DNA from: Ascidiella aspersa
Lineage: Eukaryota
Assembly (NCBI GenBank): GCA_963924565.1
Contig: OZ004614.1
Location: forward strand, 25,544,001-25,608,000
Direction: 5' to 3'
Length of the DNA: 64,000 nucleotides
Part shown: positions 38,899 through 63,439 of the stretch, in pieces
How the letters are laid out: the number at the start of each line of letters is the position of its first letter
Numbering within the stretch: the first letter of the stretch is position 1
The notes under the pieces: generated by a model
The model's database searches: none
Told to the model about the DNA's origin: nothing
Seen by the model: the letters and a program-made list of their open reading frames with translations, nothing else
Made by a program: the position numbers and the translations under genes

Positions 38899-41877
38899 TT
38901 TTGAATTTGTTCTTACCTAGGTTAAAAAACAGCAGAATTGAATTTTTTATCAACAGAATAATAAAATAGACATTTATAGCACTCTATCAATGTTGTTCGT
39001 AAAAAGTAAGCACCTTTTGAAAATACCAAAACGGAAGATATAAATATCAAAGCCCATACAATATTGGTAGCATTTTGTGAAAGTTTTGAATAAATGTTTT
39101 TCAGCTGTTAAAAATGAATCAAAAAATTGTAAAACGTTTAAAAATGCTATCTATAATGAATAGGCTTTAGTTTTCCTTTAAAGTTTAACTACAACTTCCA
39201 GCCATTATGCTCTAAACTTTATATCTGTTAAACTGCATATGACCAACAGACGGAAATTGGATGATTACCAAAGATTGCATAACGACCACACTTTACACGA
39301 TAACTGCAATGCAACGAAATTCAAAGAGACGAATGTTAGCATACAAACGAGCGTTCTAAGAATTGCAATCAGAAGAAGTCTTACCGGGAAAGCGCGTAAA
39401 GAGCAGGCCATGCGACTGACAACGCCGTGAAACTTGAACAGAGGAGGAATCTTGCAAAGCATGGCGGTTTCAAGTTGCCAATTAATCCCTACGCTAGGAA
39501 TTCACAAGATTTTTAACTGAAGCTATTTTCGCAAATTAGAATAAGTAAGTTTAATATTAGGGTGGAAAATAAAGACCTTTTAACTTGCTACTCCTAGAAT
39601 AAATCGCGAGTCTACAAATACAAGGCAGACAACCTGCGAACTGCAATCATTTATGAAAAAGTAAACACACAGCAACACAAACAAACTCACGCACGGCGTC
39701 AAAATATCCTAAACAGCAGAAATGGTCAAACATTAATGTTAGAAATTGAATCTAGATTAGGGATTTTCAACCTTTTTACGTCAATAGCTCTAAATATCAT
39801 GCTAAAGCCCCGGGTAAGCTAAAACCAAATAATAAAGGGACGGTAGTCTATTTTATTGAACGTGCAAGAAAAATAGTGTTTAAGTTCGTACATGTAGGAT
39901 TGTAGGCAAAGAGATTATTTAAGCCTTGTTGAAATCTCTTTGATCTAAGTTGCCATATTTCAAAACGCTAAATCTCAAAACGTGGCGTAATTTTTACATT
40001 AAAAGACGGAAAATACTCGCGTCCGACGGGAAAAATGCTTTTGTATATAGTTTAAGTTGTCCAACTTTTCATTTTCATTTACGAGGGTACGATGAGACGC
40101 ACGGCGCATTCTGGGTAATTCGGTTTCAACAAAACTGGTGAGGTGTTTAAGCTCATTTAGAATAAAATTAAACTCGTATAACAAGGGGGTCAAATCAGAT
40201 TCATTTCATGCAATATAATAGCGTTATGATATACAGTACTCACTTTGATTGACAGAACTTCGCTCCAACAAGACTCCGGTATTTCAGATAAACGTAACAC
40301 GTCTAGCTTAAGACTCAGAAAATGTAAAGTGTGTAGTTTAGTTGGGGTTGCGTTTGTGGTACTAACCTATTCGACAGGAAATCAGAAACGAGGAAGGATA
40401 GGGATTGATAATAAAGAGAAAGGATGCGAAAAGGGAGCGAAGCGGGAGCGAGCAGGAAAACCGCGAGGAAAAAAGTCCATGCAAAAATAGACGCACGAAC
40501 GCGCGCAGAATTTAAAAACTAGGCTTGACAGATTACAGGAAGCTTCGCTTAAAACCGCTAATACAATAACTCAAAACAGTGCTGAACCGATTCAACCATA
40601 TGCATTTTCAAAAACTTAACGAATAATTATAAACTTAACAAATAAGTTCGCCAGCTGAACGCTACACTGGCAAATGATGTTCAGCTGCAATTCCATATTT
40701 GGTAAAGAAAACTGTATAATATTGCTTCTTTAGGTTTGCTATACTTAAAAACGAAAAACATGCTGATTAAACGTTTCTAACTAAACTGCCTTAAATAGAA
40801 CACGCAATAACGCAAAAACTCTTTTCAAAGGCGATTACAAAATGGTTATAAAGCAATAACTCTAGCTCAGTGGTTCTCAACCTTTTATGCTTCGTGGCCC
40901 CCTTTAAAAGGCTCCTAACGCTCGTGGCCCCCTGCTTATAAACATACCTCAATTGTAGCCTATTGTATTTACCGTGTTTTCACGTTTTACTTCTCCATGT
41001 TATAAAACAAATACAGCCATTATTCAACGAATAAATGCATTTACTTTCTAAAAATTAACAAATAGGCCTAAGTCATTTTAATTTAAATTAACTTAGTTAT
41101 TCATTACAAAGCTTGTTTGCCGACCCCACCGAGGTTTTATATATTTGGCTCTGCCCGTTTTGTACTGCGGCAAGCGATGCCATGCACTGCATTCGTCAAG
41201 ATGATTTTGTTGATTTTTGTTTTATTAATGCGTTACTATTAGCCTACTGGACAAATAAGCTGTGCATAACCTCTCCGAATGTTGGCCTAAAATTCACCTT
41301 GAGTAACCCTGTAGCGTACTTAATGCGTTTTACTACGAAATGTTTCTTTTGTAACAGAAAGTATAATGCGAAATCGTTGCACCTTGCATTACACGCCAGT
41401 TGCTTGCCCAACAGCATTTGTTGGACACTTAATGATTGGGCAATGGTTACGGAAAAATATAGTCTTTAGTCATAATACAAACCTAAGTATAACGAACTGC
41501 GTGGTGTTCCAAAGGTTACTTTTATGACGTCACATTTATCTAACGCTGTGACGTCACATTATGACGCAATTTTGCGACGTCATCTGTGAAAAAAAATTCT
41601 ATGCCCCCTCCAAGCAATAATTCTAAATCTGCGCCTGTTGTAGAATTAAACTCTTATGCAACACAGACAGTTTTTTTGCTGCAATCTTTTTTTATTCGGT
41701 TCTAGTTGAGGTGAACGTGAAATTGCGACCAAACGACAAACAACATTGAACCCGCCACCACCTTTCACTCCTGCTAAAGGTCATAGGTCACTCACACGGA
41801 CTATAGGTCATCACAAGAAACTTCTAAACCACCAGGACTGGCTTGAGAGCCAGACCCGCTACCGACTAGCACCGCGT

Positions 41878-44521
41878 TTAAATGTAAGTGTTGAGCATCG
41901 TGATGAACATATCCTTGGCGAAGACGCTACGGTTCATTCCGGAGGCAAAATCAGCAAGAAGCTTGTTAACCAACTTGACTGTAAGGTCTCGTATGTTTGA
42001 GACAGCGTACTGGACTTTGTCGATGTTTTTCTGCTGTTCAGCGTTCTTCTCGGCCATTTGATCGAGAAGAGCTTTCTGTGCGTCGTTTGCAACTCTAGCG
42101 GCATTCAACGCTGCGTCTTGGGCTTGATTTTTAGCTGAACTGCTCGCCAAAGCTGCGTCCTGCCTTTTATCACTGGCAGCTGACTTGGTAAGACTGGAAT
42201 CTTGGGCTGCGTTGACCAATTTCACAGCATCAAGTTGCGACTCTTGGATGCTGTTCTTGTCCAAGATGCTGGTGATCTGACCGCGTTGTTGGTTGTTTGT
42301 GTTCTCCAGTGCTCCCATGCGAGAGTCCTGCTTGCTGTTATGGCTCCTGATGGATCCGATAACTGCATCCTGGTCGTTGTTCTTGCTCTCAGCGGACTTT
42401 ACCATCTTCCTGATTTGATCCAACATCTCTTCAAGCTCCTTGTTCTCCTTGTAGAGATCCAGGACATCTCTGTAGAGCTTGGAGTTGATTGCAGCTTGCG
42501 CCTGTGTATGTGGTGGGGAGTTAGGATTTGCTCACTTATAAACACTTATTTAATTGCCTTGCTGAACCTCAACACGACATGAATCATTATTGTAATGAAT
42601 TGAGTCAATAAAATGAAATAACCTGACTTGACCGAAGTCTTTGGAGCAGAATGATTTTAATTGATCAGACTTTGGGACAAATGAGTTCATTTTTATTTTA
42701 GAAAACGACATAAGTCAAGTCACGTCATTGAAAAACAGTGACTTTAGTGCACTTAATTCAAGGCCTTGTTTTAAATCATTTCAACACCGGCATAGATAAG
42801 AATGACGCAGGCCACTTAAATGACTAACCCAATAGCTAATTAGGGCGAAGTAACAGGATTCGTTTGGGTAAAATGACTTGACTTGGATTAAGTCCTTCGA
42901 ATAAATGACTTGAGTTGAAATGAAGTGTTATCATTAAGCATTTGTTCATAAAATTGAGTTAATTATCTCAGGTTTTGTACATAAAACAACTTGCTTGCTA
43001 TGTGTTACGTTTTTTGTTGTTTTCACGTTTATTGCTCACAATCGGATGAGTTTACCAATTAGTTCAACGTTAAACTTTGATGACAAGGACTTGAGTTGGA
43101 GTTGACTTGCTCCAACTAAGACTTGACTTGTTATTTTTTTAAAAGCCTTGACTTGAACTCATATTCTTTTAAAAATGACTTTTTTTGCAAAAAACTTGAC
43201 TCGGACTTCGATCATTTCAAAATGGCAACACGGCAAGTTTTTGTGCGAATATTTGAAGAGGCGTTTTTTTTTTCTTTGTTAGAAACAATATCGCCCATTT
43301 TTTGTAAATATTTTTCTTAATTAATAATAAGATGTTGATTATCTCTGTCCCACCAGGTTTTATAATGTAACGTTAATGTATTAAAATCGGTCAACTCGTT
43401 TATCGTTTTTATTTAATTTAAAACAATTTTGCTCTTTGTAATGCAAAAACCACGAGTATGCTAGTCAATAAAAATGCCTTGTTTGCCAATAAAAGTAGAA
43501 AAACATCTAGATAACTTCAAACTTACCGACAACTACCCAAACAGCGAGGCGTATTCAGGGGGTTGCAGCTTAAGCATTAAGTTGATTTATGGCCAAACCG
43601 CATGTAAAACAAAAGGCCAAACCGCATGTAAAAAAAAAGGCCAACCGCATGTAAAAACAATTTATTATCTCTGCCCCACAAGGTTTTATAATGTAATGGG
43701 CGGTACTTTTGGTGTTAAAGCTAACAGGACTCGAAAGCCGGATAAAATTATTTAAAATCAATGTCTAAAATTTTACAAAATCTTAAATGCATAGCAACCC
43801 TCCGTAGTGTTGCGTGTATTTATTTTTTATTTCTATGAAAACGATGTATTTTAATTTGATCGCATCTTTTTTGCCTTCATTTAATTCCACTAGTACAGAT
43901 TTCTCAGCCGTAGCTACGGACCGTACTACAAATCTGGCCTAAAGAAAGCAACGAGCATTTTACCTTCATAAGAGCTTCCATCTTGTCGTTTGAGGACTTG
44001 AAATTGTTGACGATGTTGTAAGTGAAGCAGACTTTGGTGCCGATGGCAGCCAGGTAGCTGTTGAGGGACCTGATCCTCTCATCTCTGTAAGAGAACCATC
44101 TGCTTACGTCTCTCTTGTACCCGTCGAACGTACTGCAGCGCTACGGATTAATTATTTGTTAAAAAAAGGGATGAGTTTGAGATAGAGATAAATAGGTTCA
44201 GACTTGAATTTCAAGTTTTCAAACAAAACACTGGAAAAGAAGTAGGCTGCAAAGCCAACGCTACTTAAAAAAGCATGCTGGGCATGTGCATATTTGCAAA
44301 GTAGCCTATGCTACCGACCTATGCTAAGAGACAGTAATATAACTGGTAAAAAATACTTCTATAAACGCAACTAATGATTTAAGGCAAAAATGTAATTGTA
44401 AAGATAGCAATTTAACAAAACCAATAGATTTAAAATAAGACCTTACCAAAAGGTATGCATTGGTTTCAGGTATTGCCATGCAGGCCACCAGGAAAAGAGT
44501 TACAACAGAAAAAAACTTCAT
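41878..44521 (-). CDS. Secreted coiled-coil repeat protein, paralogue A (291 aa); exons 44447-44521, 43964-44140, 41878-42501
   Basis: Signal-peptide-like MKFFSVVTLFLVACMAIPETNA, GT-AG introns in frame, nine 14-aa NxxQD repeats, AATAAA at 41691-41696, probable 5'UTR donor CAG|GTAAGT near 45233. Colinear with the gene at 59092. Confidence 0.88.
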
Positions 44522-45538
44522 TGCTCTGAGCTATTGGTTTTCTGCAGAAAATCAAAGTAAATAAAGTGAATGTATAGTTAAAATATTTTTTTGTAAAAGG
44601 CTGCCATTGTTTTCTAGATTTTCCTGGAATACAAAAACTTATAACAAACTAGAAAAATGAAACTCAAAGTATGTAAGCTTTACATAACGCACGGAAGAAC
44701 TAAATATAGCTAAGGTGTTTAATCCAAAAACAAAACACAATAAACAACTAGTTTATATTTGCACATTTTTAGCACACCACCCAGTAGATTTTTATATTAC
44801 GTAAATAAAACCAATTTGCAGCGCTAGAGCCGTTTTATAGACAATCACGTACAGATCAACAGAGAGAAATGCAACGCTTTTAAAAAAGGATAAATTGTTA
44901 GATAAAAATGACGGATACAGCTTAAACAAATTGCTTCATAGCTAATTAAGGCACAGTAACATGGTTATAATAATAGAACCTACACATTTATAATATCATA
45001 TAAACACGTTTTAATTTCACCCTAATAATAAAATAATTGATATCGGTTGGGGCGAATGCCCTTTTTGTCCAAAATATCGTTTATCGGAACAAAATATCGG
45101 TCTTCCCTCTCTACTCATTCCTAACCTTCTCGCTTTAACACTAAGCACTCGTTTGTAAAAACCCGCGAACACTGATGATTTTATGTGGGCCTTATGCTGC
45201 TGTTAGCCCCTGCTTGTTTTTCCGTAGAACTTACCTGGTGTCACAAACACATGCTCGAAATTGCTTGTGCAATGTGCGTAATGCCAACACTGCACTATCT
45301 GTTTGTTCAGCGCATGCGCATATATCGTCATTAGCGCTGCCACTTTAGACGCGGAAGCTTGGCTTAATCCTAGTATGACGCATTTTGACACTTTGCAATG
45401 CAAACTTATTAGCGGGGGTGGCATTAGGTTATGACTGTTCAATCCTGTGCAATGAAACTCGTACGTTCAAACAATCCATCAATCCTTCGTGTGTTGGAAG
45501 AAACATTGTTTTTACCAATATCATCATTATGTTGCATG

Positions 45539-45700
45539 CAGGCGCGGATTTAAGGTTTTGGTTTGTGGGGGGGATTTTTTTAGCGTGACATCACAAAGTT
45601 ACATCAAAACGTGACGTCATATAGTTACGTCAAAACATGACGTCACAAAGTTGCGCCAAAACGTGACGTCACAAAATTTAATACAAAAGATACAAATAGG
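45539..45700. mobile_element. MITE-like end (CAGGCGCGGATT) carrying three TGACGTCA palindromes
   Basis: TGACGTCA at 45612, 45638 and 45664. An inverted relative lies at about 41500-41638, with fragments at 55790 and 59550-59622. Confidence 0.55.
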
Positions 45701-48700
45701 ATATAGATTCGCCACCCGATTCGATTTGTTTTCAACGCTTGTAGCGTTCGTATTAGGATAATTCGGGGCTTTGAAGCGTCTGTGTTAGAACATGTGTTAG
45801 AAATTAGACGCTTTAAGCGGACCGTATAAGAACAGGATGCAGGCGAACAGCGAATGCGCAGACTAATCATGCATAACGAAACGTTGCCAAGCGATGCAGA
45901 GTATAGATTTTTTTATCTTGTACAGTTTTGGATATTAGAAATGCAGAAATGTTTATAGCTGTACCAAGTTAATGCGATGTTTATAATTTCACCCAGCAAA
46001 TAGAAGGTTAAAAGCTTTTATTGTTGCTAAAGCCTACCTTATTAGCGAACATTATTTGGGTTAGGGTGCGGGTTTGGGTATAAGTCAAGCAATACTATTA
46101 ATAATAATACTTGAACCACCCCTACCCCAGCCTGGAAAGTATAACAGAACACGCGGGTACAATGCCGAAAAAAATCGGGTGACTAGGTGCAACAAAGTTA
46201 AAAAAGGGCGCTGGTCTAGAATCCTACCACATTATTAAATCAACGCACAATATTAGGGTTAGGGGCGGCGAGAGTTAGTGTTTGGGTGTGGGTTGATGAA
46301 GTATTATTATATTCATTTTTAACCCTAACCAAAATAATGTGCATTGTGGTAGGACTTAAGACCAGCACGAAAAAAGTGAATCTCTGGTCTGCTTTCGAAT
46401 TTCCAGACTTCCACGTTTTGATTTTCTCATGCACTCCGTATTGCATACATTGCACTTTAAACATATAAATAGGGTGCACAAACGTTTGACATGTTTAGGG
46501 TGCAGTTCAGATTTTTTTCTGGGTGCACTTGCCATACTTTCCACAGTGCCCCCACCCGAACAGTAACCAACACCCTGTCCCAAATATTGTAGCTTGCTGT
46601 AATAATTGTTTCAACGCTGTGGTAGGATTAAAGACCAGCGCCAATACTTTTATTGTTGCTAAAGCTGCTGTTTCTGGCTATTGACTTTCATTCCAAGGTT
46701 TTATTAGTTAAAAGACAATATTATTTACATTTACAATGCTAAAAAATATTAGTTGTAGCTAATTTACCTCATTATACTAAACTTAGTTAGCAAAATATAT
46801 GCCAAGAAATATTAAATTAGATAAGATGACCTTTGTTTTCCAACTTATTTTCTAAAATTTGGTCACCATTATAATGTAAAGTAAGTCCTAGGTAGTATAC
46901 ATGTTTGAAATATTATAATATTGAAACAAATTTAACTTTAACAATTGGCTATTTTCATGGTGCATATTGCATCTAGTTTGCATTCTGTGGCAGATGCATA
47001 CCAAATATTTTTAAAGCAATTTGTGAGCACACCTCAATAAATAAATTGCACATTTCAGAAAAGGTTGTGTTGCAGTAGGATTTCAAACTTCAGTTATGCC
47101 GAAATATGTCCTCACATCTGGAAATTTGGTGATGTACGTCAGATATCTGTGCATCGCACATTCTTTGAACCACATTTTAATGTAAATTTTTAATTTGTGG
47201 CATATAAATCTTAAGGTCCGAAAATATGTTACTTCCTTCTGTTCATGGTGGCCTGAAGGCATACAACCAAACTAATAAAAACTCATGAATATTATTAGTT
47301 GTAAAAGTGTTGTAGTGATCTCAAGTTGATAAAAAATAGCTGCTGCATAAGGTTGCGAAGTTGTAGGAAATAGTGCCCGATAAATTTAAATTTCATGTGT
47401 CACTACCTTAATTGACCTTACTTTTTACCATTTTTGCATTCTTAACTTTTTCCATTAAGGTCATATACAAGGCATGATTTTTAATAAAATGGTGAACTTA
47501 GTTGTTTATTATCTATAAACTGCTTTAAGTTTAATATCACAGAATTTAATTAAATATTATCATGCCTGGCCAAATTAATTTATATTTTTGTTTTTCATTA
47601 TTAAAAATGTTTTTATTTCCCGAAATACCATTTTATATAATTCCTAGATGTAATATTTCAGTCAACCCCAAAAATTAGGGATTTTGTAAGGTTAAAGTGC
47701 AAGTAAAAAGATGTCTCTGAAAGTGTTAAGTAACCTTTAAATCATTGGAAAAGCTCTCTGCATCAAGTCTACACCCATTTGACAAAGAAACAGCTTCAGT
47801 TTCCATCCCCAACAAACCTTTGTGCGCGGAAGTTAGAGAAAAGGTAATTTCCATTTTGTGTGTTGTGCATTCCAAAACATTAATGTTTACCAGCACTTCC
47901 CAACCTGTTGCCAATGGTTTCCAGGTACCAAATTCGAAAATGTTTTTTGAATAATCTTTAATAACGACTTGGCTAATTTAGTCCACAGTTATTAAAATGT
48001 GTAACCAATATACAAGGCCTATTTAATAAAAACATGCAAGTAGTGCAGGAGAAATATATGTATATCTAACATTTTTAGTATTGTCTAGTGTCGACAAGGG
48101 AGTGCAATCATCTAACAAGGAGAAACAACTAGCGATGAACTCGTGGTGCCTATGTGCAAAAAATCATACAGTGATGAAGAAAAGGACAAACATTTAAATG
48201 TGTAATTATTCTATACCGGTGGTTACTGTATATTTACCCCCCATCATTTCACACAATCGTTCGTGTTTGCCGCTTAAATCTCCACATGGTAAAATAAACA
48301 GATTTGGAAAATCATAAATGGCCCATTGATTTGAGTTATAGTTCCTAACAGGCCGTTTAAAATACCCGGAATGCGATAGTTTATTGAACGATTTTGTGGA
48401 CTACGTATGCTACATTTATTACGCACAACATTGTGCAATTTTGGAAAAACATATAAATAGTTTCCTGCTTTAGTACACTCTGATTATGTTTTTGTGCCTT
48501 GTTTTTAGCTATTAGTGCTTTAAATGTGAGTTTAATAAAATAAAAAACAACGGTTATGTGTTCCAGTGTTGGTTGACTACAAAAACTAAGTCCACTTACA
48601 AATAACAGTATTTTTGTTAGCTGATTTTACGCATTTTGCGTTTCGTCGTTAGTATTAAAAAAAGAGGCCGAACAGTGTATTAAAATAAATAATTTTATTA

Positions 48701-50122
48701 ATTACTACATTCAAATTATGTCCGTGTTGGGTCGTTCCTTGTTCTACAATTGACGATTAAAAATCAAGCAATATATCCACCGCACAACGCAGTAAATCAA
48801 AACGTGAATTGAGCACACATTTTTGTAGTGGTTTATCGTGATATTTATTGATTCGATCTATATTTGCCCCTATGATTTCGTTGTATCTGGTAGGACTCCA
48901 ATTGTCCAGCCACAAGATCGAAATATATATTTCGGAATAAAACAAAAATCGGACTAGGACCTAATACTCGTAATAATAACGTATAAACGGAATATGTCCT
49001 ACGTATAAACGGAATATTTCCGGAATAAGACTTAACTTGCATGAAAGAACCAAGCCTATACAAAATTTGCCGCCCGTAGGTACATCACAAACCCTTCTAA
49101 TAATTTCAACTCTAAAAACAATTTTCTAGCCCTAAACAGGGCCTAAAATCGATGCCAAAACAGCGGAGCCTTAACGGCGCCGTTCCATCTAGGGTGCCCA
49201 AGCGTCGACACCAAAACAACCGATGGCCCTGATCGTCCCATACACTCTCCTTACAGTTTCAGACGTTATTTTGGCGTAACGCCCTGTTTCGATGAATTAA
49301 GGACTTTCCGGCGGGTATGTGTCTTATTTAGGCGGTTTAGATCTTATTCTGTCGTGGGTATTAGGCCTACTGCGTATTTGGCTTTATTATGTCGTTGGTT
49401 TTGCTTTGTAGTTATTATTGTATGTTCCCATCTGATTCCGATACAATCGTGTTTATACTCTTAATAGCTTACGTTACAACATGTTGGTCATCTCGGACAA
49501 ACTTTCGACGTCAACCTGGTTTTAAAATGGCCATATTTCTGAAAAAATCCATCTCTTAAGGATTTAATACTGTTAGCACTGCTGTATTGAGGCATTGTTT
49601 TAACTACGTGTGACGAAACCAAACTAAACAATTATGGTTTGTTCAATGAGAACATGTTATTGACTTGCGTCTAAAAATATTGTTGTTCGCAATATTTGTC
49701 AAAAGGTAAAAAGCTTAGTATTAATGCACATTTCAACATACTAAACCATGCCTATTAAAGATTTTCATCCTGGCAGCTGCACAGCCGACAATTATCTGCG
49801 AGAGCCTGTGGCTGTTTTAATTCTCATCTACACGTCTTGAGTATAGCAGTACCCAAAGTGTACTTCGGTTAAAAATGAGTAACTTTTACATTTGTAGAAG
49901 ATATAAACACAATGATACTTGTGCAAAAACTGTGTGTTTACATTTCGTACTTATCCGTAATTTTAATTTTGCGCTGACTGTTGCAAAGCTGACTTTCACA
50001 CGGTTCTACCTTTTAAATGCCTTTGATTCGCGCTACGTACAGAAGAGTTTTTCAAATTGGAAAATTAAAACTAACACATTTGTGGCAGACATATAAACTG
50101 AGATGTTTGGTTAAACAACAGT

Positions 50123-51370
50123 AAAAATGCTTCTGTACTAAGCGCACATCATAAGCATTTGTAATGCACAATTCTGTGCGAAAAGTTAGCTTTGCGACCT
50201 TTAACGCGCAGTCAAATTACTGCCAAACGAAAAGAGTTAAACGAACAGTTGTTTTACGAAACATCTCAGTTTATGCGTCTTTTACAAATGTGTAATTTTT
50301 AATTTTCCAACTTGAAAAATGCTTCTGTACTAAGCGCGCTTCATAAGCATTTATAGTGCACTTTATGTGCGAAAAGTCAGCTTTGCGACCTTTAACGCGC
50401 AATCAAATTACTGCCAAACGAAAAGAGTTAAACGAACAGTTGTTTTACCAAACATCTCATTTGATATGTCTCCCACAAATGTGTAAGTTTTGATATTCCA
50501 ACTTGAAAAATTCTCCTGTACTAAGCGCTCATCATAAACATTTATAATGCACTACTATGTGCGAAAAGTCAGCTTTGCGACCTTCAACGCGCAATCAAAT
50601 TACTGCCAAACGAAAAGAGTTAAACGAACAGTTGTTTTACGAATAATCTCAGTTTATACGTCTTTTACAAATGTGTAATTTTTAATTTTCCAACTTGAAA
50701 AATGCTTCTGTACCAAGCGCGCTTCACAAGCATTTATAACGCACGACCCTGTGCGAAAAGTCAGCTTTGCGAACTTTAACGCGCAATCAAATTACTGCCA
50801 AACGAAAAGAGTTAAACGAACACTTGTTTTACCTAACATCTCATTTGATATGTCTCCCACAAATGTGTAAGTTGTGATATTCCAACTTGAAAAATTCTCC
50901 TGTACTAAGCGCGCATCATAAGCATTTATAATGCACTACTATGTGCGAAAAGTCAGCTTTGCGACCTTCAACGCGCAATAAAATTACTGCCAAACGAAAA
51001 GAGTTAAACGAACAGTTGTTTTACGAAACATCTCAGTTTATATGGATTTTACAAATGTGTAATTTTTAATTTTCCAACTTGAAAAATGCTTCTGTACTAA
51101 GCACGCTTCATAAGCATTTATAAGGCACGACCCTGTGCGAAAAGTCAGCCTAGTGAACTTTAACGCACAGTCAAATTACTGTCAAACGAAAAGAGTTAAA
51201 CGAACTGTTGTTTTACCAAACATCTCAGTTTATATTTCTCCCACAAATGTGTTAGTTTTAATTTTCCAACTTGAAAAACTTTTCTGTACTTAGCGGGGAT
51301 CAAAGGCATTTAAAAGGTTCAACCGTGGGAAAGTTAGCTTTGCAACAGTCAGCGCAAAATTAAAATTGCG
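50123..51370 (+). repeat. 192-bp tandem satellite, about 6.5 copies, alternating A/B variants
   Basis: TG(C/T)CAAACGAAAAGAGTTAAACGAA recurs at 50221, 50412, 50604, 50796, 50988 and 51180. Confidence 0.95.
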
Positions 51371-54300
51371 GACAAGGTACGAAATGAAAACAAACAGTTT
51401 TCGCACAAGAATCATTGTGTTTATATCTTCTACAATTGTAAAAGTTACTCATTTTTAACCGAAGTACACTTTGGGTACTGGTATACTCAAGACGTGTACA
51501 TGAGAATTAAAACAGCCACAGGCTCTCGCAGACAATTGTCGGCTGTGCAGCTGCCAGGATGAAAATCTTTAATAGGCATGGTTCAGTATGTTGAAATGTG
51601 CATTAATACTAAGCTTTTTAACTTTTGACAAATATTGCGAATAACTTTTAGACGCAAGTCAAAAATATGTTCTCGTTGAACAAACCATAATTGTTTAGTT
51701 TGGTTTCGTCACACGTAGTTAAAACAATGCCTCAATACAGCAGTGCTAACAGTATTAAAACCTTAAGAGATGGATTTTTTCAGACATATGGCCATTTTAA
51801 AACCAGGTTGACGTCGGAAGTTTGTCCGAGATGACCAACATGTTGTAACGTAAGCTATTAAAAATATAAACACGATTGTATCCATCGCTAGCAGTCATTA
51901 CACCTTGGCACCATTTAAGACAGTTTTATAGGAATCAGATGGGAACATACAGTAATAACAACAAAGCAAAAATACAAAAGCTACAATACCATAGTTAGAA
52001 GACCAACGACATAATAAAGCCAAATACGCAATAGGCCTAATTCCCACGACAGAATAAGATCTAAATAAATTCAATAAAACAAGCGTTTGATGGCCAAAAT
52101 AACGTCTGAAACTGTAAGGAGAGGGTATGGGACGAACAGGGACCATCGGCTGTTTTGGTATCGACGCTTGGGCACCCTAGATAGAACGGCGCCGTTAAGG
52201 CTCCGCTGTTTTGGCATCGATTTTAGGCCCTGTTTAGGGTTAGGAAATTGTTTTCAGAGTTGAAATTATTAGAAGGGTTTGTGATGTACCTACGGGCGGG
52301 GTTAGGTGAAATTTTGTGTAGGCTTGGTTCTTGCAAGTTAAGTCTTATTCCGACGTATTTAGGACATATTCTGTTTGTACGCTATTATTACGAGTATTAG
52401 GTCCTAGTCTGATTTTTGTTTTATTCCGAAATATATATTTCGATCTTGTGGCTAGACAATTGGAGTCCTACCAGATACAACGAAACCATAGGGGCAAATA
52501 TAGATCGAATCAATAAATATCACGATAAACCACTACAAAAATGTGTGCTCAATTCACGTTTTGATTTACTGCGTTGTGCGGTGGATATATTGCTTGATTT
52601 TTAATCGTCAATTGTAGAACAAGGAACGACCCAACACGGGACATAATTTTGAATGTAGTAATTAATAAAATTATTTATTTTAATACACTGTTCGGCCTCT
52701 TTTTTTAATACTAAGGATAAAACGCAAAATGCGTAAAAATCAGCTAACAAAAATACTGTTATTTGTAAGTGGACTTAGTTTTTGTAGTCAACCAACACTG
52801 GAACACATAACCGTTGTTTTTTATTTTATTAAACTCACATTTGAAGCACTAATAGCTAAAAACAAGGCACAAAAACATAATCAGAGTGTAGTAAAGCAGG
52901 AAACTATTTATATGTTTTTCCAAAATTGCACAATGTGGTGCGTAATAAATGTAGCATACGTAGTCCATAAAATCTTTCAATAAACTATCGCATTCCGGGT
53001 ATTTTAAACGGCCTGTTAGGAACTATACTCAATCAATGGGCCATTTTGGATATGATTTTCCAAATCTGTTTATTTTACCATGTGCAGTTTTAAGCGGCGA
53101 TCACGAACGATTGTGTAAAATGATGCGGGGTAACTATACAGTAACCACCGGTCTAGAATAATTACACATTTAAATGTTTGTCCTTTTCTTCATCACTGTA
53201 TGATTTTTTGCACATAGGCACCACGAGTTCATCGCTAGTTGTTTCTCCTTGTTAGATGATTGCACTCCCTTGTCGACACTAGACAATACTAAAAATGTTA
53301 GATATACATATATTTCTCCTGCACTACTTGCATGTTTTTATTAAATAGGCCTTGTATATTGGTTACACATTTTAATAACTGTGGACTAAATTAGCCAAGT
53401 CGTTATTAAAGATTATTCAAAAAACATTTTCGAATTTGGTACCTGGAAACCATTGGCAACAGGTTGGGAAGTGCTGGTAAACATTAATGTTTTGGAATGC
53501 ACAACACACAAAATGGAAATTACCTTTTCTCTAACTTCCGCGCACAAAGGTTTGTTGGGGATGGAAACTGAAGCTGTTTCTTTGTCAATTGGGTGTAGAC
53601 TTGATGCAGAGAGCTTTTCCAATGATTTAAAGGTTACTTAACACTTTCAGAGACATCTTTTTACTTGCACTTTCACCTTACAAAGTCCTTAATTTTGGGG
53701 GTTGACTGAAATATTACATCTAGGAATTATATAAAATGCTAAAAATATTTTTAATAATGAAAAACAAAAATATAAATTAATTTGGCCAGGCATGATAATA
53801 TTTAATTAAATTCTGTAATATTAAACTTAAAGCAGCTTATAGATAATAAACAACTTAAGTTCATGACTTGTATATGAATGGAAAAAGTTAAGAATGCAAA
53901 AATGTTAAAAAGTAAGGTCAATTAAGGTAGTGAAACATGAAATTTAAATTTATTGGGCACTATTCGCTACAACTTCGCAACCTTATGCAGCAGCTATTTT
54001 TTATCAACTTGAGATCACTACAACACTTTTACAGCTAATATTATTCATGAGTTTTTATTAGTTTGGTTGTATGCCTTTAAACCACCATGAACAGAAGGAA
54101 GTAACATATTTTCGGACCTTAAGATTTTTATGCCACAAATTTGAAATTTACACAAAAATGTGATTCAAAGAATGTGCGATGCACAGATTTCTGAGACACA
54201 TCACCAACTTTCCAGATGTGCAGACATATTTTGGCATAACTGAAGTTTGAAATCCTACTGCAACACAGCCTTTTCTGAAGTGTGCAATTTAGTTATTGAG

Positions 54301-54560
54301 GTGTACACACATTGCTTTAAAAATATTTGGTATGCATCTGCCACAGAATGCAAACTAGATGCAATATGCACCATAACAATAGCCAATTGGAAGTTAAATT
54401 TAACACCAAAATATTGGCTTCAATTTATAATATTTGAAACATGTATACTACCTAGGACTTACTTTACATTATAATGGTGACCAAATTTTAGAAAATAAGT
54501 TGCAAAACAAAGGTCTTCTTATCTAATTTAATATTCCTTGGCATATATTTTGCTAACTAA

Positions 54561-54734
54561 TCTTTGTATATGGCCGTTGTATATCATTTTGACCTGATAA
54601 AGCACGGCTGTGCGAAAGCTTGTCGAGAATCGATCTTGTCGAGAATCAATTTGACCTGATGAAGCACGGTTGTGCGAAAGCTTGTCGAGAATCAAATACA
54701 ATTTGTCTTTATACAGTGCCACCTGATTCCTGTA
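54561..54734 (+). mobile_element. 174-bp retro-insertion with tandem hammerhead motifs, flanked by a 12-bp duplication
   Basis: Absent from the mirrored left arm (single site near 46783-46794). TTTGCTAACTAA is duplicated at 54549-54560 and 54735-54746. Confidence 0.8.
54587..54689 (+). ncRNA. Two tandem minimal type I hammerhead ribozyme motifs
   Basis: Copy 2 (54650-54689) reads TTTGAC-CTGATGA-A-GCAC-ggtt-GTGC-GAAA-GC-TT-GTCGAG. Copy 1 (54587-54628) has the same design but the core is CTGATAA. Confidence 0.75.
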
Positions 54735-57700
54735 TTTGCTAACTAAGTTTATTATAATGAAGTAAATTAGCTACAACTAATATTTTCTTGCATTGTAAAT
54801 GTAAATAATATTGTCTATAGCCAGAAACAGCATTATTAGCTTTAGCAACAATAAAAGTATTGGCGCTGGACTGTTTGGGTGGGGGCCACTGTGGAAAGTA
54901 TGGCAAGTGCACTGTTAAAGTGTTGATAAACACGTAACATGCACCCAGAAAAAAATCTAAACTGCACCCTAAACATATCAAACGTTTGTGCACCCTCTTT
55001 ATATGTTTATAGTGCAATGTATGCAATACGGAGTGCATGAGAAAATCATAACGTGGAAGTCTGAAAATTTGAAAGCAGACCAGAGATTCACTTTTTTCGT
55101 GCTGGTCTTAAGTCCTACCACAACGCACATTATTTTGGTTAGGGTTAAAAATAAATATTAAAAATACTTGACCCACCCACACCCAAACACTAACTCTCGC
55201 CGCCCCTAACCCTAATATTGTGCGTTGATTTAAAATGTGGTAGGATTCTAGACCAGCGCCCTTTTTTACCTTTGTTGCACCTAGTCACCCGATTTTTTTC
55301 GGCATTGTACCCGCGTGTTCTGTTATACTTTCCAGGCTGGGGTAAGGGTGGTTGAAGTATTATTAGTAATTAGTATTGCTTAACCCATATCCAAACCCGC
55401 ACCCTAACCCAAATAATGTTCGCTAATAAGGTAGGCTTTAGCAACAATAAAAGCTTTTAACCTTCTATTTGCTGGGTAAAATTATAAACATCGCATTAAC
55501 TTGGTACAGCTATAAACATTTCTGCATTTCTAATATCCAAAACTGTACAAGATAAAAAATTCTGTAGTCTGCATCGCTTGGCAACGTTTCGTTATGCATG
55601 ATTAGTCTGCGCATTCGCTGTTCGCCTGTATCCTGTTCTTATACGGTCCGCTTGAAGCGTCTAATTTCTAACACATGTTCTAACACAGACGCTTCAAAGC
55701 CTCGAATTATCCTAATACGAACGCTACAAGCGTTGAAAACAAATCGAATCGGGTGGATTCGCAAAAAGCGAAAACGCCTTTGCAGGATGCAGGCGCGGAT
55801 TGAGAACTTTTCCTTCCGGGAGCGGATGCAAGGATTAGATGCACTATGTTTTGATGTCAATGACTTGACTTGGACTTAAGATATTTTACAAAATTGATTG
55901 AAATTGGCCTAGGCTCAACGTAATGAGTGGAAATGATATTGAGTGGATAAGGAGGTTTGCTATAGAACGAGTTAAGACGCAAAACAAATTCCGAAATGGG
56001 CTTCGGCTGTAGGTTATTATAAGGCACACAATGTAAACAAGAATTTATTTATTGCTGTGTTTAAAAAAAATTTAATTCGTTTTTGGGTGTATTTCAAAGG
56101 AAAATTTAATCGTTTTAGGGTGAATTTTAAAGGAAATTTAAATTCGTTTTAATTAGCTTTTAGGGTTTATTTAGTCGTTTCAAACTTACACTGGACGTTT
56201 TTTTTTAAAGAAACATTTGGCACAAACACAGCGTTGTTGTTACAAAACAGCGCCCCTAATCACCTTGGGCCACTTGCATAAGCGCACTTAACACCAACGA
56301 GAATTTCGCACCTGAAAAAACATGACTCTTGAACGGAAGCACTCTTAGAGGGATCAGTCTTTGCGAAAACATTCTGCGGGAAATTGAGCCTCGAAATCCC
56401 GCGCACTCGACTACAGGACCAGGGGTTCATTGACGCACGCTCGGTACTTAGCAGTAGCAACAAGTTTATGCGGAGAAAATCCGTTTGGATACGGGCGATT
56501 TGTTTGTTTTTTGGTTGCATGACAACTTTGAAAACGAACTGGTGTTTTCTTTAACCCAGCGTGCGCAGAAAGATACGGTCTGTCAATAATCAAATTTTAA
56601 GCAAATATTTTTGCAATATTTAAAAATAATTTTGCTGACCACTATTTCAGCTTTGTCAGGCGTTTTATGTAAGAATTTGCAAAACGTTTGAAAAATAACA
56701 TTTGATACAACCATGAAAAAATGATGAAAAAACAACAAATAAAATAGTATTTTTTTATTTGCTAAAAAAATCTGTATAAATTGCATTAAGTCACACGTTT
56801 TTGACTATGAATTAAGTTGCTCTAGATTTGTTGTTTTTATATTTTATTGATTTTAAAAATCTTTTTCCTCTTTTTTGTATCAATTTTGTTTTCTTTTAAT
56901 ATTACTAGTCATATTAAAATTTAAGCGACAAAATAAAAATGAGCTAAAATCAGACGTCTGAGTCGGCAAACACTTCGTCCAACTTTAACTGGTGTAAATC
57001 CGCCCTTCTGTAAATATGTTAAAACTTCAACAGTCCTAAACATTTCACTTGGCTAAAATCACCGAAACATAAAAAGTTAAAAACGCCTCATAACAGTGAA
57101 ATTTGATGTTCAGTGAAAAACATTCAAGAAAAGGGAGGTTTGTATAAGACCCGGAAGAGCTCTACGTCACTGGGCTGTTGTTTCAAGTGGATTGCACAAG
57201 AGTGTGATTGCAAACCCGGGGATTATCGCTTGTAACAACAGCTTAACGTTAGTTAGGGCTAGTTTTAAATTGGCCGGCTCTATTTAATGTTGTGTTGTGC
57301 CGATATCGGATATATTGGACAAAAAATATGGCAAAGCGATACAATACTAAAATATTACTATGCACAAAAATAAAATTGAAAGCTTCAAAGCCTTTTTTCA
57401 GGGTGTTCTTTGCTTTACTGTTAAGAGTTTGAACCCACTTTTTTTGATCAATTTAACTGGTTTGTTTTGTTATTTTGTATTCTGGGATACAGAAATGTAA
57501 TGTTGTACCGATGAAGCGTTGGAGTTCACTTAAAATAAAAATTCCTATCTTTAAAAGAATATTTTCGACTGAAAAGTAAACGTTATGATTTTGGCTCAAG
57601 AATATAGTCATTAGATATGACAATTTCGGAAAATGGCGACATATTTTTGTCAAATTACATCCGATTTTTAAAAGTTGAACGGTTAGTTTTTAGTTTTTCG

Positions 57701-59091
57701 TTGCAATTTCTTAAATGAAACACAACAATTTATAAGCTTTTTTGTAGGACAGTCAAGTTTTACATTTAAATCTCTTCGTATAGGGTTTGGGTAAAAAACA
57801 GAACAGAAAAACTTATATTTTAGTTTTATTTAAAGGATTATTTTCTTAATAAAGATGAAGTATACAGTTGAAATGTTGGATGCAATTCAAAACCAAAGTT
57901 TGATATTTTTAAAGCCACACTACAGTTTTTATTGCATAGTTATTTATATATACTTAGGGTTTTTAAAGCTAAAAAAAAATTTGATTAAATTCTTAATTAT
58001 ACGACAATTTATTAAGGCTTATTACAGTTTTCATTGAATTGTTATTTATATTTCTTCTTAATCGTAATCGCGATGTTCAGGCCTAAGAGTTATCCGGCAC
58101 TTTATGAAAACAGTTTAGTGGCCCCTGCTATAGGCCTACAAATGCGGCCTTCGGGTAAAAACATGTTTACCACGGGAGAAAAGGTTCCGATACTGCACGA
58201 GTTACTGAAGTGGATTTGCGAGAACAACGTTCAACTCACGAGAGAGATTAAATCGGCTCGAAATGCATCGGAACACGCATGTTTTCGTTGTGCTTGCACG
58301 CTTATGTTTGCATGTAGAACGCGGCGTTGGCATAACTTCGTGCGTATGTTCAGTGCTTTGTGCGTAAGTTGATTTGCTAAGTACCTGATGAGTTTTTACA
58401 GCGCCAAAAAACAAGGCTCTTCAAACTGCATAGAACGTGATTAAAGCCATGCGGCCAAACCAATTTGTCACTGTAAAGTTCTGAGTTACCTGACTACAAT
58501 CGAGTGGTAGCGCTTATTTAAACGGTCGGTATTGACACCTGTACTTAGTCTGCTTGCCAAAGGGCTGAAAGTTGCTAAGAAATTTGATTCAGAGTTTAAT
58601 TTATTTTTAGAGACCTTATTTCAAACTCGGCCTTTAGCTATTCAAAGAAAAAAAAACGAATGAAAAGTCTAAAGATACATTAAAACAAAGGTTCGGCCTA
58701 AAAAACGTAAATCAGAACCTCTTTCGTTTTTAACAGGCTTAAACTCAACTAATTAAATATTTGTTGGGGCCCTTTAAGGCTTAAAAAAATAAAATCTTGT
58801 TGTTAGGCTATAGTCTTGCTCTGTTGATTTTTGAAGTGTGAAGTAAACGCAAATAATCATTTTGAAACTGTGCTTAAACTGTGCAAGTACATCAGGTTTT
58901 CTTTTAAAGCTTTTTAAATTAAAAACATACATTTTAAATGAAAAATACAAATATTTAAAATAGGCTATACCTTGATATATATCTTTCTTATTTGAGTAAT
59001 TTGCAGAATTGTGTGTCGGAAATGCAATTTTTTAAATGTTCTTAAACACCTCCTTGATTTTTCACAGAAAGCATAGAAATAAAGCGTTAAA

Positions 59092-62000
59092 ATGAAGTTT
59101 GTTTCGATTGCGTTGTTCGTTTTCGCCGCTTCGGCCATTCTCCCCCAAAGCAGCGCATACCTTGTGGTAAGTTACAATGTTGTAATGACTAAAGGCTTGA
59201 CTCAAGTCACTGTTTATAAATAATCTGACTTGATTTGAGTCGTTTTGGCTTTATACTTTTTCATAAACGGACTGATAGGAATTGACGATCGCGGACTGAA
59301 TATGTGTTTATTATCTATAGGACCAGTGGTTCTGAACCAGGGTTTGATAGAACCCCTGGGGTTCGTCGAGAACTTTCTTTGAAACATAAATGCTGTTATT
59401 TAAAGTTAAATTTGAATCTACTTTGTGTTCCAAGGCGTCAAGTAACTCTGTTAAATTGAAAGTTTGACCAATCAAACTATTTGATTAAGTCCAGTTTCAG
59501 TATTAGCGCACGGGTTGGCTACAGAACAACAGGTGTTTTAAGACGAAATGTTTTATGACGTCATGTTTGAGTCATCCATGACAACTTTCATGCCCCCTCG
59601 AATAAAAAATCCTGGATCCGGCCAATTTGATGACAAACACGAAAAAAGAAATACTAAACGAAAATTAGGGGTTCGGCGAAAGCTTGCAGAATGACTTGGG
59701 GGTTCGACAGGTTGTCCAAGGTTAAGAACCACTGCTCTAGACAATCTTTAAACTAAGGAAATGTAAATAACTATGCAACAAAATGTAATGCGTCTTGATG
59801 AATTGCGGTTCAATTTAGAACATAATCAAAATTTGGAATTTTTCTTTAAACAACGTTTCAAATATAATTTATTTTAATTAAGGAAATATTGCTGGTAGAA
59901 TTAACTCAGTGGGCCGAACTTTTTAAACCGCATAAACTTACATAAAACTACATAAAAGTAAAAAAAAACGAAAAAATAGTACTATCCACTAAACTATTAC
60001 TAATAATGACTGCTCTGAAAATATATGAAAAAGAGTGAGTTTTGCGAAACTTTAACTATTGAAATAGTGGGAAAAACATGAGGCTGTGGTTTGATGATCC
60101 CATCCTATTAGCAAGATTTTTTAATCCGCAGCGTTGCAGTACCTTCGATCGTTACAAGAGCGACGTGAGCCGTTGGTTCAGCTACAGAGACCAGAGAATC
60201 AGCTCCGCCTACAACTACGCAGTGGCCATCAACAGGAAAGCATGCGCCGTCTACTCCATGGTCAAGACCTTTGACGATACCACCAAGAAAATGGAGAGCT
60301 ACATGACTGCACAGTCGAGGACTAACCAGCAACTTCAGGGTAGGTTGTCTCACCTGTAGGAAATAAGGAAAGGGCTTGTTGGACGCCATTTTTTATTCAT
60401 CCAGCGACAATGGCCCAGGTTTTAGGAAAATGCCACGAAAGGCTTTTTATATTTATGTTTTCTAAAAAAATGGTTGTTTGTAATCTTTTAAACCTGAAGG
60501 TAATAATAATAAAAATGATAATAAAAAAATACAAATATTTCAAAAATGAAATCAAAAAACGAATATCAAAGCCTGAAAAATAGGTAGCCTATTTTCAACG
60601 TTTTAAATACCGGTAGTTATTTATTAAAAAAAAATACTACTTGTGTATGGGCTTTGATATTTGTTGTACGTCTAACTACAGTCGTAAATCATTATATTAA
60701 CACATATTAAAACATTCACAAAATGCTGCCTGCTTCTGCATGGGTTTGATATCGATTCTACTTCTAACTACAACCTCCAGCCATTATCTTAAGATTTATT
60801 CGAAACGTTCAACAAGCTACCTACTTCTGTATGGGCTTATTTATTCAACGTCTAACTCCACCCCTTAGCTATTCGGCTCCATAATAAAAAACAAACCTTT
60901 CTTTTTCCTTCCAGGTCAAATGAGCGATCTTAAGAACAAGAACTCAGCTCTTAGACGCGAAATGGAATCGCTCCAGTCCAAGGTCCGATCCATTGAGAAG
61001 AAGAACGGCGAGCAAGATGGAGCTTTGAGCAGTTTGAAGAGCCACAATTCAAGGCAGGATTCCCGCATGGGAAGCATAGAAGCTGTCAATAGAGACCAGA
61101 ACGCACAGATCAGCAAGGCTAATGACCACAACGCTAGACAGGACGGAAGCATTAGGGATTTGCAGGTGTGTGGATTGTATAGGTAAAAAGAAAAATTTTC
61201 TTACATGGAAAATGAATTGTTTTCTAAACAAAACCATGGAGATTTTTTATTCTTAAAACTTAATCTGTTTTCTTGCCGGAACGATTAAAATTTTTTACCG
61301 AAGCCATGAATTTTTTGCTTATCAGAACCTTGGAGATTTTTTTGTTACCAAATGTATAATTTTTTTCTTGACAGAACGATGACAATTTTTTTACGAAAAA
61401 CATGAATCCCGCACAAAAATTTTCGCTTTCATATCTGAACCATGAAATTTTCCTAAAGGATCCATTAAGATTGTTTTATTGAATAGCCTTACCGTTCTAC
61501 AGTTTTTAGTTTTACAGTTATTCGGTCCCTAATGAAAAAAAAATGACGCTGTCGTTATGACTTATTTACCAGGCGGTCAACACCAGACAAGACGGCAGCA
61601 TTAGCGAGTTGAACCAGAAGAACTCTGCCCAGGATTCTTCCATCGCAGCAATAAACACCAAGAACGGACAACAGGATCAGGAGATAGCTTCCATCAAGTA
61701 AGTCTTCAATCCAACCAGGAAATTATTATTTTTATTTTTTTTTTTTGAGTCTGTAGGTAATTTATGCCTTTGGGCAGTTAAAATAAGCGATAATTAAGCA
61801 CGTTAGAATTCCAATTTGCTTATTGTCTGCATAAAAATACCACTTTTTGCTTTTTCTAACGAACATTTTACGACCAAGATAAAAAATTTATCTTTCTAAA
61901 AAAAATAATAAAAAAATGAACAAAAATCTACATAAAAACGACTTTTGCTTATTTCAATCAATATTTAATGACTAAAAAGATCTTCCTTTATCCAGGGACG

Positions 62001-62899
62001 TTAACAACAAACAGCATGAGAGGATCGAGTCCCTTGCATCCAGCAACGCAGAACAAGATAAGAAGATCAACTCTCTCCTGGAAACTGTTCAGAACATCGC
62101 TGAAATCACCACCAAGCTCGTGAAGGAATTGCTTCTCGAGTTCAGTAAGAAGGTTAACAAGTGCGTGTTCAGCAACGACATGTTCTCCTGTATGTTGGCT
62201 CCTGTCCCAAGGCCGGCCTACACCTTCACACAAAGCAGTAGCCTTGGTGAGTTTGACAGAAATAATATGATGTAGCTTGAAAATGAATCTCAAAGTCAAA
62301 CAGGTCGAGTAAATCGGCATTTTCTTGATAAAGGCCGGCCTACACTTTCACACGAAGCAGTAGTGAGAATGGCAGTGATACCACGTTGGAGTATGACATT
62401 TGTAAATACTGAAGTTGTTTTGCAAAAGAATTCCCGAAGAATTCGGGCAGTTTTCGGTTAAAGTACATTTGGGTTTAATATTTAGAAAAACTATTGTTGT
62501 CCTTTAGCTTCGAATAGTATAAGATTGGAAACTTGTATAAGCTTGGAAACCTTACATTTTGAAATAAATACGAGTTAATTAGGCTATCTGCCAAGATCTT
62601 TTTGCTATTAGCTTTGAATGCTTCTAATAAGTTAAAAATTGTAAACGATTTATTTGTGTACACTATGTACGGATTTGTAATGTAGCTTGGTAATAAACTG
62701 CAAAGCCAAAAAGAGTAAATCAACACCATCCTGATTAAGACGTTTCGATTCGAACTTCTATCATGATCAGTCAATGTTACTTGTTGATGTCGATCTACTC
62801 AACCTCTTCGGTGTTGATTTTCATTTCAGTTGCTAAGTCTGTTGAACCTTGCATTTTATTTCAGATGCCGCTAAGATCTTGGCCGAAGTTGCCGAATAA
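59092..62899 (+). CDS. Secreted coiled-coil repeat protein, paralogue B (about 314 aa); exons 59092-59166, 60132-60339, 60915-61165, 61573-61697, 61996-62246, 62865-62899
   Basis: Signal-peptide-like MKFVSIALFVFAASAILPQSSA, phase-compatible GT-AG introns (0,1,0,2,1), RCSTFD.YK.DVSRWFSYRD shared with paralogue A, and nine NxxQD repeats. The last exon is the least certain. Confidence 0.88.
59324..59734. mobile_element. hAT/Charlie-like MITE in intron 1 of paralogue B
   Basis: TIRs CAGTGGTTCTGAACC ... GGTTAAGAACCACTG. The right flank CTCTAGAC fits the Charlie NTCTAGAN target and the left flank is degenerate. A similar end occurs at 40868. Confidence 0.8.
62600..62815 (-). mobile_element. Penelope-like pseudo-LTR with hammerhead motif (62734-62775, core mutated)
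   Basis: Minus strand reads ATTGA-CTGATCA-T-GAT-loop-ATC-GAAA-CG-TC-TTAAT. An inverted piece GATGTCGATCTACTC lies adjacent at 62786 (+). Confidence 0.6.
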
Positions 62900-63015
62900 T
62901 CGACTTCGCCAGCCCTCAAAAGCGAAACGTGATTTCCTCGTCCGTTTTAATAGTTTTATTGATGTTGGTTCTTAGAAAAGCAACGAAGCTATCGTTGTTT
63001 AGCGTGGGTCTTTAG

Positions 63016-63439
63016 TAGGGATGTCCAATAATATCGGATCAAAGCCGATACCCGATACCAAGTGGTAGTATCGGTACTCGTACGATACTAAGGTGCTATC
63101 AGTGCCGATTAAATTCCCAGTTGATACAAGTTTTTAAGCATAATTTGGGGTTCACTGCAGCTTTAAAAGTAAACTCTTAACAGTTAGTGTGATTAACAAA
63201 CTTGTAAAGGCTAAATCACATTTATAATTAACCTGGAAAACATTATAATGCATTGGTTAACAATTACAATTACCAGAGGAGCTGTTCTTGATTTATATTA
63301 TAATGCATATTTTAACTGTATCATTTTTTTATTTGATTTGATTTGAATAATGACGTCAGTTGGTATCGGATCAAACGGCCGATACTTTTACTCAAAATAT
63401 CGGGTATCGAATTAAATTGCAAAGTATCGGACATCCCTA
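63016..63439. mobile_element. hAT-superfamily MITE
   Basis: TIRs TAGGGATGTCC ... GGACATCCCTA (Ac-like). The 8-bp flanks GTCTTTAG and GTCTGTAG match at 7 of 8 positions. GTATCGG/CCGATAC subterminal repeats are present. Confidence 0.88.

Follow-up and report, generated by a model that had tools for sequence, protein, structure and literature searches.

The window analyzed here, 64,000 nucleotides of the Ascidiella aspersa assembly GCA_963924565.1 (contig OZ004614.1, positions 25,544,001 to 25,608,000), is AT-rich (GC content, 0.35), intron-rich animal DNA that carries a head-to-head pair of genes for putative secreted coiled-coil proteins, referred to as gene A (minus strand) and gene B (plus strand). 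The divergent pair announced by the original prediction was recovered at the stated coordinates: gene A has three exons and encodes 291 amino acids (aa), gene B has six exons and encodes 314 aa, both reading frames are open, and 7/7 introns have GT-AG borders. Exon 1 of gene A (44447..44521) provides the start codon, the predicted signal peptide (residues 1-22), and the first 3 mature residues; exon 2 (43964..44140) encodes a conserved N-terminal segment with Cys27 and Cys63, in which the heptad register begins; and exon 3 (41878..42501) contains heptads with Asn at position a and Leu at position d, nine 14-residue units (residues 125-250, corresponding to 42381-42004), a predicted tail helix, and the stop codon. 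In gene B, exon 1 (59092..59166) likewise carries the start codon and predicted signal peptide, and exon 2 (60132..60339) the conserved N-terminal segment with Cys27 and Cys63. Exon 3 (60915..61165) encodes the heptads that precede the array and roughly its first four units, with residue 125 encoded from 61004; the middle three units lie in exon 4 (61573..61697), and the last units, together with a tail bearing Cys276 and Cys285 (C-x8-C), in exon 5 (61996..62246). The putative exon 6 (62865..62899; 11 codons and a stop), a feature of the model only, is plausibly a real exon; the alternative is read-through of the exon 5 donor, which reaches a stop 9 codons on. The next intron contains, at 62330-62366, a short stretch that nearly duplicates the 3′ end of exon 5.

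The phase-0 intron after codon 25 is common to the two genes, and all other intron positions differ. The GC content at third codon positions (GC3) reaches 0.62 in A and 0.66 in B, to be compared with the 0.35 of the window. Outside repeats, the gene B locus showed single-copy depth in 30/30 bins of 55800-64000 in two contig data sets, one of which may be the assembly's own source, and the three contig pieces that span exons 2 to 5 are all free of gaps. Coverage by two contig data sets thus indicates that the gene B locus is not an assembly artifact. Similar pyrimidine-rich, acceptor-like sites ending in CAG precede both start codons (44542-44555, minus strand; 59054-59067, plus strand), standing 20 and 24 bases ahead of those of A and B, respectively; their sequence suggests a noncoding first exon or a trans-splice site.

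Both proteins contain nine colinear 14-residue units at residues 125-250, as anticipated. Self-identity at a lag of 14 residues was 0.28 in A and 0.34 in B (z scores, 7.3 and 10.7), values reached in 0/1000 shuffles of either sequence, and no other lag between 2 and 30 rose above a z score of 2.1 except lag 28. Tandem Repeats Finder reported no DNA array in any exon, and both synonymous codons are in use for the Asn and Gln of the repeats; the repeat therefore exists at the protein level. A DNA-level tandem repeat or a chance frame was ruled out by the combined Tandem Repeats Finder, shuffle, and codon results. The proposed strict NxxQDxx(I/L) pattern stood only in part. Asn is conserved in 17/18 units of the two proteins, Gln in 18/18, and Ile, Leu, or Met at the eighth position in 18/18, whereas Asp is found in 12/18, being replaced by Arg, Lys, Gln, Glu, Asn, or His in the other 6/18, and the full string in only 9/18 (3 in A and 6 in B). 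Asn and Gln occur together in 17/18 units and the Asn-Gln-Asp triad in 11/18, with complete Asn/Gln layers in 8/9 units of A and 9/9 of B. The 3-4-3-4 spacing of these residues defines each unit as two heptads, the first with Asn at a, Gln at d, and Asp at e, and the second with hydrophobic residues at a and d. In both proteins, the heptad table is unbroken between about residues 34 and 265. With Asn125 placed at a, Ile, Leu, Val, Met, or Phe occupies 36/66 core positions of A and 37/66 of B between residues 34 and 264; the next best of the seven register offsets scored 26 and 25, respectively, and reuses one of the same columns. Within the repeat region, 20/36 core positions are polar in A and 18/36 in B (50 to 56%; 18 heptads per chain). 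Taking a coiled-coil rise of 0.148 nm per residue, the predicted rod would be about 34 nm long, with 2.1 nm per unit.

The A and B sequences align without gaps to residue 287, with 115 identities (40%) that are unevenly distributed along the chains: 7/22 in the signal peptide, 28/42 at residues 23-64, 19/60 at residues 65-124, 43/126 in the repeats, and 18/37 in the tail. Their coding sequences are 53% identical at the nucleotide level. Nei-Gojobori estimates over codons 23-287 yielded 0.61 nonsynonymous (dN) and 1.79 synonymous (dS) substitutions per site, a ratio of about 0.3 that is rough, given that dS is near saturation. Within the repeats, the two proteins are identical at Asn of position a in 8/9 units, at Gln of position d in 9/9, and at Asp of position e in 5/9, but at only 18/81 noncore positions. 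Conservation of Asn and Gln amid diverged noncore residues and mixed synonymous codons points to selection on the polar core itself. As judged from their sequences, A and B are intact, anciently diverged paralogues.

Both proteins start with a hydrophobic segment (best 12-mer hydropathy, 2.9 and 2.7), in agreement with the signal peptides previously proposed, and small residues stand at -3 and -1 ahead of Tyr23 in each, following the cleavage rule of signal peptidase. A membrane anchor was ruled out, as neither chain contains a membrane-like stretch after the signal (no 19-residue window above 1.0). These features make it likely that both products are secreted. The conserved Cys-containing head was confirmed with regard to conservation, most of residues 23-64 being identical as noted above, but not as a separate domain, since it shares the heptad register of the repeats; with one register running through unbroken, this segment most simply represents the first heptads of the rod. 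Cys27 falls at an a position near the N terminus, and Cys63 at an outward-facing b position. They lie about 5 nm apart along the helix, so that inter-chain or inter-rod bonds are likelier than intra-chain ones.

A profile of both exon 2 sequences returned a single match (E = 8e-4) among 1.84 billion proteins. This protein, P0001, corresponds to MetaClust record UPI000224A9F1, an unnamed singleton. The match is weak alone, yet it was confirmed by features that all lie outside the query, namely, a signal peptide, a Cys as the fifth predicted mature residue, and a tail that aligned to that of B with a score of 49 (0/5000 shuffles; 15/5000 in the comparison with A). P0001 thus displays the N-terminal Cys motif and the tail motif (C-x8-C) in the same order and register as the A/B family, and its part equivalent to the head is predicted to be helical, with low confidence. 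The conserved tail that had been claimed for A and B is therefore shared by a third protein. B and P0001 have both Cys residues of the C-x8-C pair, and A has other residues at the two positions; this joint presence and joint loss suggests a disulfide. The C terminus of A, also predicted to be helical, extends 6 residues beyond the final Met in the region of the tail motif. P0001 contains an exact 58-residue duplication (residues 10-67 and 68-125) that takes in part of the signal peptide and is probably a gene-model or assembly artifact. Once the duplication is removed, the protein is about 115 aa long and lacks NxxQD; about 11 heptads span the distance between its first Cys and the tail, and Val predominates at a and d in the second half of the stalk. 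Its structure model is of low confidence (mean predicted local distance difference test [pLDDT] score, 51.9). The short stalk of P0001 implies that stalk length is not fixed in this family, and the fixed-length rod envisaged by the original prediction was not upheld; the equal length of A and B reflects this pair only. On this sequence comparison, the family consists of conserved ends framing a variable-length stalk. The array of Asn/Gln layers is likely a later expansion because P0001 has the frame without the array, a direction that is read from one sequence.

Searches of Pfam, the PDB, and homologue collections matched no named family or structure, in line with the initial failure to recognize one. 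The homologue collections are mostly microbial, and little weight is placed on them for the range of the family in animals. Of the candidates retrieved with A exon 3 in a word-indexed search, 0/559 passed, as did 0/28 in an exon 2 profile search for longer proteins and 1/626, P0001 itself, with a profile including P0001. In the ESM Atlas, the best feature score for A exon 3 (0.84) was under the useful level, and P0001 had no usable feature match, its best structure row (template modeling scores, 0.55/0.34) being an unnamed viral cluster. A phmmer search of PDB sequences yielded nothing below an E value of 0.2, with an unrelated best match. Using the long-helix monomer model, Foldseek returned 0 matches in the PDB, and a wide VIA-align search retrieved generic long helices (best Z score, 7.2 among many tied rows). 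Pfam scans of five coding exons gave only generic coiled-coil matches below the cut-off (e.g., PF25443, E = 0.025; PF11559, E = 3e-5). The family is not described in the papers found, a literature coverage that leaves out most subscription and older work, such as early ascidian tissue-specific cDNA papers. The same searches bear on the idea of a stalk taken over from a phage fiber or bacterial adhesin, or of a descent of A and B by erosion from a known animal family. The motif is indeed known from phage and trimeric autotransporter adhesin (TAA) stalks (PMC13580157; PMC2373917), but tblastn found no match in phage records, PHROGs produced none for A exon 3 and weak matches elsewhere (best E = 2e-4, for P0001) short of meaningful scores, and no pattern match was confirmed in metagenome contigs (0/41 and 0/121), prokaryote genomes (0/20), or viral contigs (0/27). 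PDB sequences and Pfam, above its cut-off, contributed no relative either, and P0001, with its frame lacking the array, fits local expansion of one 14-mer. We consider such an origin extremely improbable.

The original prediction likened the polar layers to those of TAA stalks and phage fibers, and the core NxxQD motif does occur in both (PMC13580157; PMC2373917, which names NxxQD among the core motifs of trimeric autotransporter stalks). It missed the known Ca2+ coordination of this motif, which is, by analogy, the main mechanistic lead. In P22 gp26 (PDB 3C9I) and the GCN4-NQD-hep3 peptide, a central Ca2+ is held octahedrally by six oxygens of Asn at a and Gln at d, while Asp at e contacts the Gln nitrogens (PMC13580157). 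In the presence of Ca2+, the GCN4 variant crystallized as a trimer, and in its absence it did not crystallize as a coiled coil. Designs with a polar core folded only with adaptors at both ends, and the natural maximum of polar core positions is 57% (PMC13580157).

On these grounds, we propose that A and B may be secreted parallel three-stranded rods of about 34 nm with Ca2+ at each pair of Asn and Gln layers, a reading whose chances we regard as evenly balanced. Its parts differ in strength: a parallel trimer is fairly probable from the sequence, and Ca2+ at the Asn/Gln layers, once a trimer is granted, is by analogy a good deal more probable than not. By analogy with gp26 and GCN4-NQD-hep3, three chains would form a parallel coiled coil in which each layer pair would bind one axial Ca2+ through six Asn/Gln side-chain oxygens, with Asp at e fixing the Gln amide, giving a rod of A at most 8 and a rod of B at most 9 Ca2+, spaced about 2.1 nm apart. 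Hydrophobic heptads and the better-conserved ends would serve as built-in folding adaptors, and the zipper would be stiffened or completed by Ca2+ encountered during secretion or in the extracellular space. Both the secretory pathway and seawater hold millimolar Ca2+, which would load the sites. Cys27 and the outward-facing Cys63 could then link rods into an extracellular fiber or mesh; a structural extracellular role is our best guess and the least supported step of the proposal.

Several observations weigh against the calcium-bound trimer. Asn at a with Leu at d at residues 90 and 104 of both chains, and Ile at a with Leu at d in 4/9 hydrophobic heptads of B, are dimer-type signatures, whereas Ile/Ile, Met/Ile, or Val-rich a/d layers represent a trimer-type pattern, which is seen in 3/9 hydrophobic heptads of B (Ile/Ile or Met/Ile) and in the stalk of P0001. 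The former would be expected of secreted two-stranded, leucine-zipper-like coils, with Asn at a setting register and choice of partner as in basic leucine zipper (bZIP) proteins, Gln at d reaching the solvent, and no metal, and Asn at a is indeed typical of dimeric bZIP zippers (PMC13580157). Such coils are unlikely here, as Gln occupies d in 18/18 units, a polar d being rare (5%) in bZIP zippers (PMC13580157), and the Asn-Gln-Asp triad has been described from trimers (PMC13580157; PMC2373917). Protein A is degenerate, with Asp at e in 5/9 units, one Asn replaced by Asp, and Ser or Ala at d in 3/9 hydrophobic heptads. In favor of the rod, single-sequence AlphaFold2 modeled A exon 3 as all helix (model residues 2-100, 110-188, and 193-206; mean pLDDT, 77.9; predicted template modeling score, 0.30), but with a break at residues about 185-193 (pLDDT < 50) that coincides with the most degenerate stretch of A and a short separate tail helix beyond it. 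Loss of Asp at e in 6/18 units is also compatible with trimers that make no use of Ca2+ and whose Asn/Gln layers accommodate water or monovalent ions, thereby keeping the rod marginally stable and in register; chloride, sodium, and water have been found in the polar layers of other trimers (PMC13580157). This is quite unlikely, since the two motif structures described in PMC13580157 both contain Ca2+ and Asp at e is not a direct ligand, the direct ligands Asn and Gln being the residues kept.

Published data on the motif count on the negative side too. Among NxxQD cases in natural coiled coils, 5,423/139,429 (3.89%) are in the register with Asn at a, and most of these have poor models; none of the three GCN4-NxxQD peptides was structured in solution at concentrations up to 150 µM, whether or not Ca2+ was added (PMC13580157). 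Arrays like those of A and B may be among the natural proteins with Asn at a, which PMC13580157 does not itemize. As P0001 shows, the family can do without the array. The mature A and B chains are basic (pI about 9), implying that neither is an acidic protein of the Ca2+-storage or mineral-matrix type. Finally, 7.8 million records of one RNA run (X3), about 6% of that run, were compared with the gene B region. Depth was 0 in bins 59910-60457 and 61006-62101, which comprise exons 2 and 4 and parts of exons 3 and 5, and no gene B splice joint was found among the 15 of 108 joint rows listed. Of the placed reads, 686/689 fit only partly, with depth tracking genomic repeats, and a sequencing-run search listed no matching RNA data set. 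The empty exons in this run, together with a 10-kb insertion between the promoters and the failure of designed polar-core segments to fold without adaptors (PMC13580157), would accord with silent relic genes or with a repeat region that is disordered in life. Open frames, canonical borders in 7/7 introns, GC3 values well above the GC content of the window, a dN/dS ratio of about 0.3, and a hydrophobic character of every second heptad all argue to the contrary, making either outcome very unlikely.

Compatible with the calcium-bound trimer is the possibility, which we entertain with considerable doubt, that A and B are obligate heterotrimer partners whose length and register are kept so that the Asn/Gln layers stay level. 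The absence of indels over 287 residues despite a dS of about 1.8 and different intron positions, the head-to-head layout at a distance of about 4.5 kb without the intervening foldback element, and the similar acceptor-like site before each start codon would suit such partners. However, homotrimers penalize indels as well, and the similarity of two units hardly depends on whether their positions match (4.8/14 identical residues for matching versus 3.9/14 for different positions). A more ambitious scenario, put forward tentatively as a possibility somewhat on the unlikely side, is that a 14-residue unit expanded in a small secreted coiled coil to give a Ca2+-zipped trimeric rod that would fold or stiffen only when 8 to 9 Ca2+ load after secretion, possibly as an A/B heterotrimer, and would be Cys-linked into a mesh.

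The start codons of A and B are 14.6 kb apart, an interval that shrinks to about 4.5 kb upon removal of a 10,043-bp foldback element (45713..55755). Its inverted arms of about 4.4 kb are 90-96% identical and have CAC...GTG ends, a 7-bp direct repeat flanks the element, and its center consists of a 192-bp x 6.2 tandem array (50123-51312) with two subtypes and a 384-bp higher period. None of the open reading frames tested (0/6) matched Pfam. We presume from the CA...TG ends, long arms, and 7-bp duplication that it resembles P-superfamily foldback elements such as Galileo. Birth of the gene pair from this palindrome was ruled out by comparing the gene-free, 90-96% identical arms with the 53% coding identity of A and B; on such identities, the element is separate from the gene pair and much younger. 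Past the 3′ end of gene A, at a distance of about 3 kb, are the exons of a guanidinoacetate N-methyltransferase (GAMT) gene in the same orientation (35448-38916, minus strand); one of them matched PDB GAMT (E = 9e-34), the others being assigned by eye. Farther on are a PDZ-domain exon (26658-26855, minus strand), which may be Shroom-like, and a low-complexity open frame of 257 codons with no Pfam match (16551-17321, minus strand); both are possibly exons of one large gene. A weak tRNA match (35.1 bits; 15911-15979, minus strand) is possibly a tRNA-derived repeat.

How polar a coiled-coil core can be is the question addressed by PMC13580157 (2026), in which core-register NxxQD is rare and disfavored and no construct folded in solution. 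A and B keep core NxxQD 8 to 9 times under purifying selection, with a 50 to 56% polar core, and may thus be regarded as natural test cases and as templates for the design of a rod switchable by Ca2+. An undescribed and likely secreted animal family is also defined by them, in which the short P0001 stands beside the long A and B, and a comparison of the two forms would test what the array adds. The Ca2+-zipped rod, if it exists, would be a natural, serial counterpart of a motif whose folding in solution eluded protein designers.

The stalks of fibrinogen, angiopoietin, matrilin, collectin, and scavenger-receptor proteins combine a signal peptide and Cys residues beside the coiled coil with globular or collagen domains. 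A and B share with them the signal peptide, the Cys residues next to the coiled coil, and probable oligomerization, but no FBG, C-type lectin, SRCR, vWA, or collagen domain was found in the Pfam scan of five coding exons, and the rod makes up almost the whole protein. Within their own family, A and B carry a long NxxQD stalk, in contrast to the short, Val-rich stalk of P0001, which lacks the motif. The predicted rods resemble TAA stalks (Saa, Lferr_2308, and BMI_I1862, PMC13580157; daTAA, PMC2373917) in being long extracellular coiled coils with about half of the core polar (50 to 56% in A and B; up to 57% in TAAs). As in Lferr_2308, doubly polar heptads are not consecutive and are flanked by Ile/Leu layers (PMC13580157). 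According to PMC2373917, the defining feature of trimeric autotransporters is a C-terminal membrane anchor domain, and no TAA anchor family appeared among the Pfam matches of the tail-bearing exons. A and B likewise differ from TAAs by the lack of a beta-barrel anchor, head, or neck domain, by eukaryotic secretion, by Asn at a in place of the Asn at d usual in TAAs, and by ends capped with short conserved Cys-bearing segments. The closest parallel is the NxxQD site of P22 gp26 (PDB 2POH/3C9I) and GCN4-NQD-hep3 (PDB 30LG), which have the same Asn at a, Gln at d, and Asp at e between flanking hydrophobic layers. A single site is described there, whereas A and B have 8 to 9 per chain at a fixed 14-residue period, and they are spliced animal genes with signal peptides and no detected sequence relationship to gp26. 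Ca2+ and the trimer are established for gp26 and, for A and B, inferred. Collectively, these sequence comparisons place A and B outside the TAAs, the gp26 relatives, and the animal stalk families tested, and the analogy makes it likely that each acts as a serial repetition of the NxxQD site of gp26.

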